Source: Escherichia coli 042 (GTDB taxonomy: Bacteria; Pseudomonadota; Gammaproteobacteria; Enterobacterales; Enterobacteriaceae). Taken from it: DNA of 64,000 nt. Positions within the stretch are counted from its first letter, which is position 1. Each line of letters begins with the position of its first letter. Below the pieces are notes generated by a model. That model was not told the DNA's origin. It made no database searches and worked only from the letters and a program-made list of their open reading frames with translations. The stretch is from assembly GCF_000027125.1 (NCBI RefSeq), contig NC_017626.1; one strand, written 5' to 3'. Below are positions 41,669 to 51,291 of this stretch, one piece after another. The position numbers were made by a program, and so were the translations under genes.

Positions 41669-48557
<6,889 letters not shown>

Positions 48558-48663
48558 AGCAAAACTTTACCGCGCCCTAATACGACAAAAGCCCAGACTT
48601 TGCAGCCTGGACTTTTCAATTCAAACAAGGGAGATAGCTCCCTTTTGGCATGAAGAAGTAAAA

Positions 48664-51291
48664 TTATTCTTCTTCTGGCTCGTCGTCAACGTCCACTTCC
48701 GGAGCGATTTCATCGTCCCCTTCCGCGGCACTGCCGTCGATGGTATCCAGATCTTCCTCGTCAACCGGTTCAGCAACACGTTGCAGACCCACTACGTTTT
48801 CATCTTCCGCAGTACGGATGAGGATCACGCCCTGGGTGTTACGGCCCACGATGCTGATTTCCGAAACGCGAGTACGTACCAGCGTACCGGCATCGGTGAT
48901 CATCATGATCTGGTCGCAGTCATCTACCTGCACCGCGCCAACCACTAAACCGTTACGTTCGGTAACCTTGATGGAGATAACCCCTTTCGTCGCACGCGAC
49001 TTAGTCGGGTATTCCGCCACTGCGGTACGTTTACCATAACCGTTCTGCGTTGCGGTGAGGATTGCGCCATCGCCACGAGGCACGATCAGAGAGACGACTT
49101 TATCGCCTTCGCCTAAACGAATACCGCGAACACCGGTGGTGTTGCAGCCCATCGCACGGACAGAAGACTCTTTAAAGCGCACCACTTTACCTTCGGCGGA
49201 GAACAGCATTACTTCGTCTTCGCCGCTGGTCAGGTCAACGCCGATCAGCTCATCGCCTTCAACCAGTTTGATCGCCACTTTACCGGCGGTACGCAGACGG
49301 TTGAACTCGGTGAGGACAGTTTTCTTCACGGTACCGTTAGCGGTCGCCATGAAGACTTTCACGCCCTCTTCAAACTCGGTCACCGGCAGGATGGCAGTGA
49401 TACGTTCGTCCTGCTCCAGCGGCAGCAGGTTGACGATCGGACGACCGCGCGCGCCACGAGTGGCTTCCGGCAACTGATAGACTTTCATCGAATAGACGCG
49501 ACCACGGCTGGAGAAGCACAGAATATGGTCGTGGGTGTTCGCCACCAGCAGTCGGTCGATAAAGTCTTCTTCTTTAATACGTGCGGCAGATTTACCTTTC
49601 CCGCCACGACGCTGCGCTTCGTATTCAGAAAGCGGCTGATACTTCACGTAGCCCTGGTGAGAGAGCGTCACGACCACATCTTCCTGAGTGATCAGATCTT
49701 CCAGGTTGATGTCGGCGCTGTTGGCGGTGATTTCAGTGCGACGTTTGTCACCGAACTGTTCACGAACCAGTTCCAGCTCTTCGCGGATCACTTCCATCAG
49801 ACGATCGGCACTGCCAAGAATACGCAGCAGTTCTGCGATCTGATCCAGCAGCTCTTTGTATTCGTCGAGCAGTTTTTCATGCTCAAGGCCGGTCAGTTTC
49901 TGCAAACGCAGATCCAGAATCGCCTGAGCTTGCTGTTCGGTCAGGTAGTACAGACCATCACGCACGCCGAACTCTGGCTCCAGCCATTCCGGACGCGCAG
50001 CATCGTCGCCCGCACGTTCCAGCATGGCGGCAACGTTGCCCAGCTGCCACGGATTAGCAACCAGCGCAGTTTTCGCTTCTGCAGGCGTCGGCGCATGACG
50101 GATCAGTTCGATGATCGGGTCGATGTTCGCCAGCGCCACGGCTAATGCTTCAAGGATATGAGCACGATCGCGAGCTTTACGCAGTTCGAAAATAGTACGA
50201 CGGGTCACCACTTCACGGCGGTGACGAACAAACGCCGCGATGATGTCTTTCAGGTTCATGATCTTCGGCTGACCATGGTGCAATGCCACCATGTTGATAC
50301 CGAAAGAAACCTGCAACTGGGTCTGGGAGTAGAGGTTGTTAAGCACAACTTCACCGACCGCGTCGCGTTTCACTTCAATCACGATGCGCATACCGTCTTT
50401 GTCAGACTCGTCACGCAGCGCGCTGATGCCTTCCACGCGTTTTTCTTTTACCAGTTCCGCAATCTTCTCGATCAGGCGCGCTTTGTTTACCTGATACGGA
50501 ATTTCGTGGACGATAATGGTTTCACGTCCGGTTTTTGCGTCAACTTCCACTTCGGCACGGGCGCGGATATATACCTTGCCACGACCGGTACGGTAAGCTT
50601 CTTCAATACCGCGACGACCGTTAATGATTGCCGCCGTCGGGAAGTCCGGCCCCGGGATGTGTTCCATCAGCCCTTCAATGCTGATGTCTTCATCATCGAT
50701 ATACGCCAGACAACCGTTGATGACTTCCGTCAGGTTGTGCGGCGGGATGTTGGTTGCCATACCTACGGCGATACCGGAAGAACCGTTCACCAGCAGGTTA
50801 GGAATTTTGGTTGGCATGACGTCGGGAATTTTTTCCGTGCCGTCATAGTTATCAACGAAATCGACCGTCTCTTTTTCGAGATCGGCCATCAGTTCATGGG
50901 CAATTTTCGCCAGACGGATTTCCGTATAACGCATTGCCGCCGCAGAGTCGCCGTCGATGGAACCGAAGTTACCCTGACCGTCTACCAGCATGTAACGCAG
51001 CGAGAATGGCTGCGCCATACGGACGATCGTGTCATAAACCGCCGAGTCACCATGGGGATGGTATTTACCGATTACGTCACCAACGACACGGGCAGATTTT
51101 TTATAGGCTTTGTTCCAGTCATTGCCTAGTACGTTCATGGCGTAAAGTACGCGACGGTGTACCGGCTTCAGGCCATCTCGGACATCCGGCAGCGCACGGC
51201 CAACAATGACCGACATCGCATAATCCAGATAGGAGCTCTTCAGCTCTTCCTCAATGTTGACCGGTGTAATTTCTCTCGCAAGGTCGCTCAT
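48664..51291 (-). CDS. gyrA: DNA gyrase subunit A
   Basis: 875 aa; N-terminal [36 protein letters not shown]; catalytic Tyr region; acidic C-terminal tail; QRDR reads GDSAVYD. Confidence 0.97.

Follow-up and report, generated by a model that had tools for sequence, protein, structure and literature searches.

The gyrA-yfaA spacer of Escherichia coli 042: a gyrA 3' UTR closed by its terminator, and the probable leader of a separate yfaA operon

The spacer between gyrA and yfaA in Escherichia coli 042 very probably belongs to two transcription units: first comes the 3' untranslated region (UTR) of gyrA, closed by an intrinsic terminator, and what follows is the short leader of a yfaA operon that is separate and weakly expressed. 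What flows from gyrA into yfaA is at most a minor leak, not co-transcription. A gyrA terminator placed ahead of a separate yfa operon is an ordinary arrangement and one that is already documented. The DNA analyzed is a stretch of 64,000 nucleotides ("the window"); positions given below are those of the window, except where a coordinate of the E. coli K-12 strain MG1655 is specified.

The minus strand of the window carries both genes, and yfaA lies downstream of gyrA. The two are same-strand neighbors in that order in the open reading frame (ORF) list and in the RefSeq annotations of E. coli strains 118UI and K-12, as the preliminary description of this DNA had said. gyrA (48664..51291; 875 aa, according to the ORF list and the RefSeq annotation of K-12 and of the identical strain 118UI) ends in a TAA stop codon at 48666..48664. 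yfaA (46827..48515, minus strand; 562 aa by RefSeq annotation; a DUF2138 protein, with Pfam PF09909 found on its homologues) is the first gene of a yfaA-yfaT-yfaS-yfaQ-yfaP cluster of the alpha-2-macroglobulin (A2M)-like, Mag type. The 601 bases around the gyrA-yfaA junction are 100% identical to strain 118UI, and matches to this region occur in 5425 of 5426 complete E. coli genomes. Two observations on the rest of the cluster may be recorded here. Going by the RefSeq coordinates, 4 nt (46827..46830, minus strand) are shared between the yfaA stop and the yfaT start, which suggests translational coupling within the operon; and yfaS, the alpha-2-macroglobulin gene (41669..46288, minus strand), is intact in the window and in 118UI, while that of K-12, with its internal stop, bears a pseudogene annotation.

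The length of the spacer depends on where yfaA begins. It had been put at 106 bp (48558..48663), a figure that follows from the longest ORF, which opens at GTG 48557 and encodes 576 aa; RefSeq places the start at ATG 48515 (48515..48513) in K-12 and in 118UI, a strain with 100% identity to the window, and the spacer accordingly becomes 148 nt (48516..48663, minus strand). An AAGGA Shine-Dalgarno sequence lies 8 nt 5' of the ATG, and the 20 nt ACACAAGGAATGTGGCAATG are unchanged in 7/7 Escherichia sequences, which favors the ATG start. GTG 48557 comes without a Shine-Dalgarno sequence and sits within the arm of a hairpin (HP3, discussed below); in E. whittamii and Escherichia sp. E1V33 a GTG is absent at the equivalent site and a 1-nt indel falls between the two candidate starts. 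By these sequence features ATG 48515 is the better-supported yfaA start. The 148 nt then divide into an 80-nt gyrA 3' UTR (48663..48584) and a 68-nt stretch (48583..48516) before the yfaA ATG. (A small ORF of 11 codons in the spacer, from ATG 48651 to TGA 48616, was considered and rejected: it has no Shine-Dalgarno sequence, and its frame is lost in E. whittamii.)

The transcribed spacer is strongly structured. A 151-nt RNA of the minus strand (the 148-nt spacer plus the gyrA stop codon) folds with a minimum free energy (MFE) of -54.5 kcal/mol, compared with -37.6 +/- 3.4 kcal/mol for 200 dinucleotide shuffles; the structure exceeds chance, since z = -4.94 and 0/200 shuffles are as stable. Three hairpins, HP1, HP2 and HP3, account for this stability. 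The preliminary description had found "only modest hairpins" in the spacer. The one that it quoted, gggagatagctccc, is indeed present on the plus strand at 48629..48642 (GGGAGCUAUCUCCC on the transcribed strand) and corresponds to HP1, but HP2, AAAAGUCCAGGCUGCAAAGUCUGGGCUUUUGUC (48616..48584; -15 to -17.8 kcal/mol), was overlooked.

HP2 (48584..48616, minus strand) consists of an A-tract, a 9-bp G+C-rich core (48612..48591) capped by a GCAA tetraloop, and the tail UUUUGUC. The core (5 G-C, 2 A-U and 2 G.U pairs) has a predicted stability of -13.5 kcal/mol; its A/U extension brings the stem to 13 bp and -17.8 kcal/mol. The hairpin lies 51-80 nt past the gyrA stop codon. Its tail, UUUUGUCGU, has 5 U in the 8 bases following an 11-bp stem; the U-tract (UUUUGUC) is shorter and more broken than the U5-U7 tracts found in other genera. 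A standard consensus terminator scan flagged HP1 as terminator-like and missed HP2, likely because maximal extension of the stem consumes the U-tract and leaves too few T; a custom hairpin re-scan recovers HP2 with the tail UUUGUCGU.

That HP2 works as a terminator is seen in published data for K-12. RNA 3' ends of E. coli MG1655 have been mapped by Term-seq (Adams et al. 2021, eLife, PMC7815308), and one of these, MG1655 2336713(-), lies 69 nt 5' of the yfaA ATG (PMC7815308, supplementary files 1 and 3). The flanking sequence given for this end in supplementary file 1 is TCTCCCTTGTTTGAATTGAAAAGTCCAGGCTGCAAAGTCTGGGCTTTTGTC|GTATTAGGGC; by the printed flank (...GGGCUUUUGUC), the end is located at window position 48584, the C of UUUUGUC. 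Read counts are 83,850 (LB, OD 0.4) and 114,542 (second condition) (PMC7815308). As an intrinsic terminator the site scores 5.6 (threshold 3.0). The 3' end carries the label "orphan" solely because it lies more than 50 nt beyond the gyrA stop codon, and the authors of PMC7815308 noted no regulatory element for its row. The supplementary tables of PMC7815308 that were examined contain no further 3' ends or Rho regions between 2336000 and 2336999. From the gyrA stop codon to the end of the HP2 tail the K-12 sequence matches the window at every position (4 positions differ further downstream), and it is through this sequence identity that the Term-seq data, which are for K-12 under two laboratory conditions, are transferred to strain 042. 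HP2 accordingly combines a G+C-rich stem-loop and a 3' U-rich tract with an RNA 3' end found in vivo (in K-12): it is the working intrinsic (Rho-independent) terminator of gyrA, because the K-12 3' end falls in its U-tract and the window and K-12 do not differ there, and the gyrA 3' UTR is 80 nt long. "Clear transcript termination after gyrA" had been proposed as a check on read-through, and the Term-seq end in the U-tract of HP2 is such a termination.

Transcript coverage tells the same story, and also bears on an alternative mechanism. DirectRNA-seq coverage, taken over 800-nt intervals, falls 13-fold across the 3' end, from 368 upstream to 28 downstream (PMC7815308); the ratio also mirrors mRNA stability, and 92% is not to be read as pure termination efficiency. 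Might termination after gyrA nevertheless be mainly Rho-dependent, acting on the untranslated spacer? The Rho score at the site is 2.17, that is, the downstream/upstream ratio doubles in the presence of bicyclomycin (BCM), an inhibitor of Rho (coverage 248 upstream and 41 downstream; PMC7815308), and this hints at a modest extra contribution of Rho. Yet the fall in coverage largely persists under BCM, the Fisher test of PMC7815308 did not call a significant Rho region at the site, the tables examined show no such region at 2336000..2336999, and the hairpin U-tract holds a sharp 3' end with the intrinsic-terminator score already given. Termination that is mainly the work of Rho is highly improbable.

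What, then, of HP1? This hairpin (48627..48644, minus strand; AAGGGAGCUAUCUCCCUU followed by GUUUGAAUUG) precedes HP2 and is weak (-6.0 kcal/mol for its core and -8.5 when extended), and its tail is broken (UUGUUUG) in the window and in K-12. One could nonetheless propose that HP1 is the gyrA terminator and HP2 incidental: HP1 is the hairpin picked by the consensus scan, it occupies the position that the terminator has in other genera, and UUUUUU comes after it in E. coli O157:H7, E. coli ATCC 11775 and E. albertii, so that it may, on the evidence of its sequence, contribute to termination in those lineages. The K-12 Term-seq tables, on the other hand, hold no 3' end at HP1, the region's only end being at HP2; HP1 reaches only -6 to -8.5 kcal/mol and has an interrupted tail in the window and K-12, and a U-tract after it is entirely absent from E. 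whittamii and E1V33. For K-12-like sequences the proposal is already contradicted, and as a general account of the spacer it deserves hardly any credence.

A more plausible place for HP1 is suggested by the other Enterobacterales. From one genome per species, 80 loci with the 3' end of gyrA were taken, of which 78 had enough downstream sequence; at 64 of the 78 a hairpin of -14 kcal/mol or stronger, with a U-rich tail, ends within 60 nt of the gyrA stop. The typical gyrA terminator outside Escherichia has the form AAAGGGCCGG-loop-CCGGCCCUUUUU, that is, GGGCCGG...CCGGCCC-U, and lies 10-40 nt past the stop codon. A variant, AAGGGAGGC...GCCUCCCUU, which is found in a Citrobacter amalonaticus genome and at three other loci, is like HP1 with two G-C pairs added. 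Because the Citrobacter-type variant amounts to HP1 plus two G-C pairs, HP1 is probably an eroded, positional remnant of the ancestral enterobacterial gyrA terminator.

The conservation of the two hairpins differs. In 7 Escherichia sequences not one of the 13 base pairs of HP2 changes, whereas its loop reads GCAA, GUAA, GCGA or GCAG; in E. albertii stem and loop are identical and the tail is UUUUGUU in place of UUUUGUC. A 48-nt HP2 segment is found in 5398 of 5426 E. coli genomes, with at least 99% identity in 4197, 95-99% in 1198 (one mismatch among the matches listed) and less than 95% in 3. The 47-nt HP1 segment is less constrained, 1145 E. coli genomes having it at 90-95% identity. HP3 (GGGCGCGGUAAAGUUUUGCUGUGCUC; 48552..48577, minus strand), a G.U-rich hairpin of about -15 kcal/mol located just after the terminator, has changed between strains in a manner that preserves its pairing: 3 pairs are altered on one side, from G.U to G-C or A-U, and 1 pair has gone from GC to CG. 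These changes lend modest support to a real RNA structure, which, being G.U-rich, is strand-specific and can form on minus-strand RNA only. The GTG that had been used as the yfaA start (48557..48555) lies inside HP3. No alternative (antiterminator) pairings among HP1, HP2 and HP3 are apparent by eye.

Some departures from the common pattern were noted among genomes labelled E. coli, 28 of 5426 of which are without the spacer. In strains 19KM1831 and SCPM-O-B-8794 atoB is convergent to gyrA, with a canonical GGGCCG...CGGCCC hairpin between the two; the gyrA of 19KM1831 encodes 878 aa, with a different C-terminal tail. In strain LF3-1 an IS1A element is inserted 9 nt past the mapped gyrA 3' end (junction equivalent to window 48575), and the DNA from yfaA through most of atoS is gone, a pattern that points to an IS1-mediated deletion in which the terminator was left intact. 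In O157:H7 strain Gim1-1 a 1-bp deletion in the AAAAAAAGG run of yfaA codons 5-8 (about window 48490..48500) shifts the frame, and RefSeq gives a 542-aa product from a later start; to judge from this sequence, O157:H7 may have an impaired yfaA, the gene that opens the operon.

Is the juxtaposition of gyrA and yfaA itself a conserved feature? At the 76 loci with at least 1.5 kb 3' of gyrA, gyrA is followed by a same-strand rcsC at 49, by a convergent atoB at 10, and by yfaA at 3, all of them Escherichia. Adjacency is thus confined to Escherichia, where it is seen in these 3 of the 76 species sampled and also in E. coli and E. albertii. YfaA homologues are 91% identical in E. albertii and 71%, 64% and about 50% identical outside Escherichia. 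The DUF2138-MagC-A2M operon is found at unrelated loci in a Salmonella enterica subsp. salamae genome, in a Logan-assembled contig (with a YfaA cluster that bears the name of Yersinia alsatica) and in a metagenome scaffold (YfaA 71% identical); at those three loci the gaps upstream of the yfaA-led operons measure 476-669 nt and show no similarity to the E. coli spacer. The placement of yfaA behind gyrA is a lineage-specific accident of gene-cluster insertion and not a conserved regulatory arrangement. The junctions of the yfa-cluster insertion could not be defined by aligning the locus of 19KM1831, a strain that lacks the yfa cluster, with the window, the gyrA 3' end and the spacer being too divergent.

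These observations can be assembled into a scheme. RNA polymerase that has passed the end of gyrA first meets the weak HP1, presumably a decayed copy of GGGCCGG...CCGGCCC-U; HP2 is transcribed next, and most transcripts end there, 80 nt past the gyrA stop, with about 8% or less of the gyrA-level signal continuing over yfaA. HP2 would have taken over the terminator function in the Escherichia lineage after gyrA and rcsC had become separated by the ato and yfa clusters. The residual yfaA signal would be either leakage through the terminator or the output of a weak or activator-dependent promoter.

How much of yfaA expression might be owed to gyrA? The preliminary description had suggested that read-through from gyrA could contribute to expression of the A2M-like operon. 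As a major route this fails on the strength of HP2, the dominant 3' end and the 13-fold drop; what stands is a leak of up to about 8%. Residual yfaA coverage in K-12 is 7.6% of that of gyrA, and 16.5% with BCM; because this coverage exists and no independent yfaA start has been located, a leak of that size (about 8% at most, 16.5% with BCM) is possible, and it could make up a meaningful share of the low basal expression of the yfa operon. A single gyrA-yfaATSQP operon is contradicted by HP2, by the 3' end and the 13-fold drop, and by the lack of conservation of the adjacency; an operon table quoted in PMC4448311 lists yfaA, yfaT, yfaS, yfaQ and yfaP without gyrA.

The leader itself offers little in the way of a promoter. 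In the 69 nt between HP2 and the yfaA ATG, neither a standard nor a relaxed scan found a sigma-70-like promoter, and no sigma-54 or other promoter motif fits by eye. A literature search on yfaA returned essentially nothing on its regulation, and gyrA and yfaA have no entries in the SMRT-Cappable-seq supplements or in the Cappable-seq transcription start site supplements. One can therefore entertain a stronger version of the read-through idea, namely that in Escherichia the yfaA operon lacks its own promoter and owes most of its expression to leakage, possibly regulated, through HP1 and HP2. No sigma-70-like promoter is seen in the leader or anywhere 3' of HP2, the residual coverage is there and rises with BCM, and only 69 nt follow the terminator here, against 476-669 nt of upstream space in other taxa. 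But the 13-fold fall and the dominant end at HP2 speak against such a route, the invariant HP2 stem implies selection for termination, adjacency limited to one genus is not what a conserved regulatory design would look like, and an activator-dependent promoter, or one for another sigma factor, would escape a consensus scan. We regard functional read-through as unlikely. Were it to operate, the A2M-like operon would be coupled to gyrA transcription, which responds to DNA supercoiling.

The relaxed sigma-70 scan, which covered the minus strand from 48500 to 48820, gave one match, located upstream of the terminator: TTGACG (48689..48684), a 15-nt spacer, and AATAAT (48668..48663). This TTGACG-N15-AATAAT candidate (48663..48689, minus strand), the sole sigma-70-like match in the region, overlaps the gyrA stop codon; the standard scan found no match, this one included. 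It raises the prospect that the gyrA 3' UTR yields a discrete regulatory small RNA, about 70-75 nt long and made up of HP1, HP2 and the A/U-rich linker between them, that would come from a promoter at the stop codon or from processing of the mRNA. The high Term-seq counts at the HP2 end would agree with this, and so would the filter applied to the data set, which retained a 3' end only if a start site mapped by earlier dRNA-seq lay 21-200 nt upstream (PMC7815308, Methods); the candidate promoter could, going by its sequence, account for the start site that the filter implies. The two-hairpin layout also resembles that of terminator-flanked small RNAs, such as those described for rrn operons, where small RNAs lie between two terminators (PMC8144298). 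Against this, the start site is known only through the filter, and candidate start sites are dense in that data set; the 15-nt promoter spacer is suboptimal, and the coding sequence into which the -35 and -10 elements fall has other reasons to be conserved. PMC7815308 assigns the row no regulatory element, as already mentioned, the U-tail is short for Hfq binding, HP1 varies among strains, and there is no Rfam family match. (An Rfam search of 48581..48662 at a permissive E-value gave STnc50 as its best match, with 18.2 bits, E = 9.6 and a gathering score of 55; this and the other sub-threshold matches were rejected as chance.) A discrete small RNA is quite unlikely.

Both ideas can be combined into a bolder proposal: the imported A2M-like operon lost its upstream region (476-669 nt elsewhere) and now depends on a tuned leak through HP1 and HP2, and the 80-nt 3' UTR is maybe also the source of a small RNA of about 75 nt from the stop-codon promoter. 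Envelope protease defense would then be tied to gyrase expression and DNA supercoiling. The proposal is very unlikely. The reading preferred here, in which the gyrA terminator precedes the leader of a separate operon, has plainer consequences for annotation: 1) gyrA and the yfaA operon are to be treated as separate transcription units in E. coli; 2) yfaA starts at ATG 48515 and not at GTG 48557; and 3) gyrA has an 80-nt 3' UTR with a conserved terminator at its end. It also makes a modest evolutionary point, which is that the ancestral gyrA terminator has probably decayed and that its task now falls to a second hairpin, unrelated in sequence.

The yfaA ribosome-binding region (48519..48531, minus strand; CACA-AGGAA-UGUG) merits a separate comment. 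In the MFE structure the Shine-Dalgarno sequence lies in the loop of a predicted 4-bp hairpin, and it is invariant in 7/7 Escherichia sequences and E. albertii. By analogy, this hairpin resembles a CsrA/RsmA site. By reading, the 69-nt yfaA leader has a single GGA, whereas CsrA-type leaders usually have a second one nearby, and a GGA inside a Shine-Dalgarno sequence is common by chance. The supplementary text of an E. coli CsrA CLIP-seq study (PMC5694010; possibly incomplete) has no entry for yfaA, yfaT, yfaS, yfaQ or yfaP, an absence limited in its meaning by the poor expression of the yfa operon in laboratory conditions.

How does this spacer compare with known systems? With canonical intrinsic terminators HP2 shares the G+C-rich stem, the stable tetraloop, the 3' U-tract and the 5' A-tract, and likewise directly follows the stop codon of its gene, gyrA, with an RNA 3' end mapped in the U-tract. 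The gyrA terminators of other Enterobacterales, at -15 to -24 kcal/mol, are much stronger than HP1 (-8.5 kcal/mol), whose stem is shortened and whose U-tract is broken; in Escherichia termination takes place about 30 nt later, at a second hairpin whose sequence is unrelated, and the gyrA 3' UTR is 80 nt long in place of the approximately 40-50 nt found elsewhere. Tandem terminators, such as those at the ends of the E. coli rrn operons, likewise place two hairpin-plus-U elements in series after a well-expressed gene; in the gyrA spacer the first element, HP1, gives no detectable 3' end in K-12. The yfa cluster, for its part, is the E. coli counterpart of the magABCDEF operon of Pseudomonas aeruginosa, which encodes a type II bacterial alpha-2-macroglobulin (PMC3735191, PMC5764988). 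The leader of P. aeruginosa magA is reported to be a direct target of RsmA; in yfaA it is a predicted GGA-loop hairpin holding the Shine-Dalgarno sequence that may, by analogy, provide a link to CsrA. The DUF2138, MagC/DUF1175 and cysteine-free A2M families of the six-gene mag-type operons are common to the yfa cluster; the E. coli version differs in having five annotated genes and in its place on the chromosome, immediately after gyrA.
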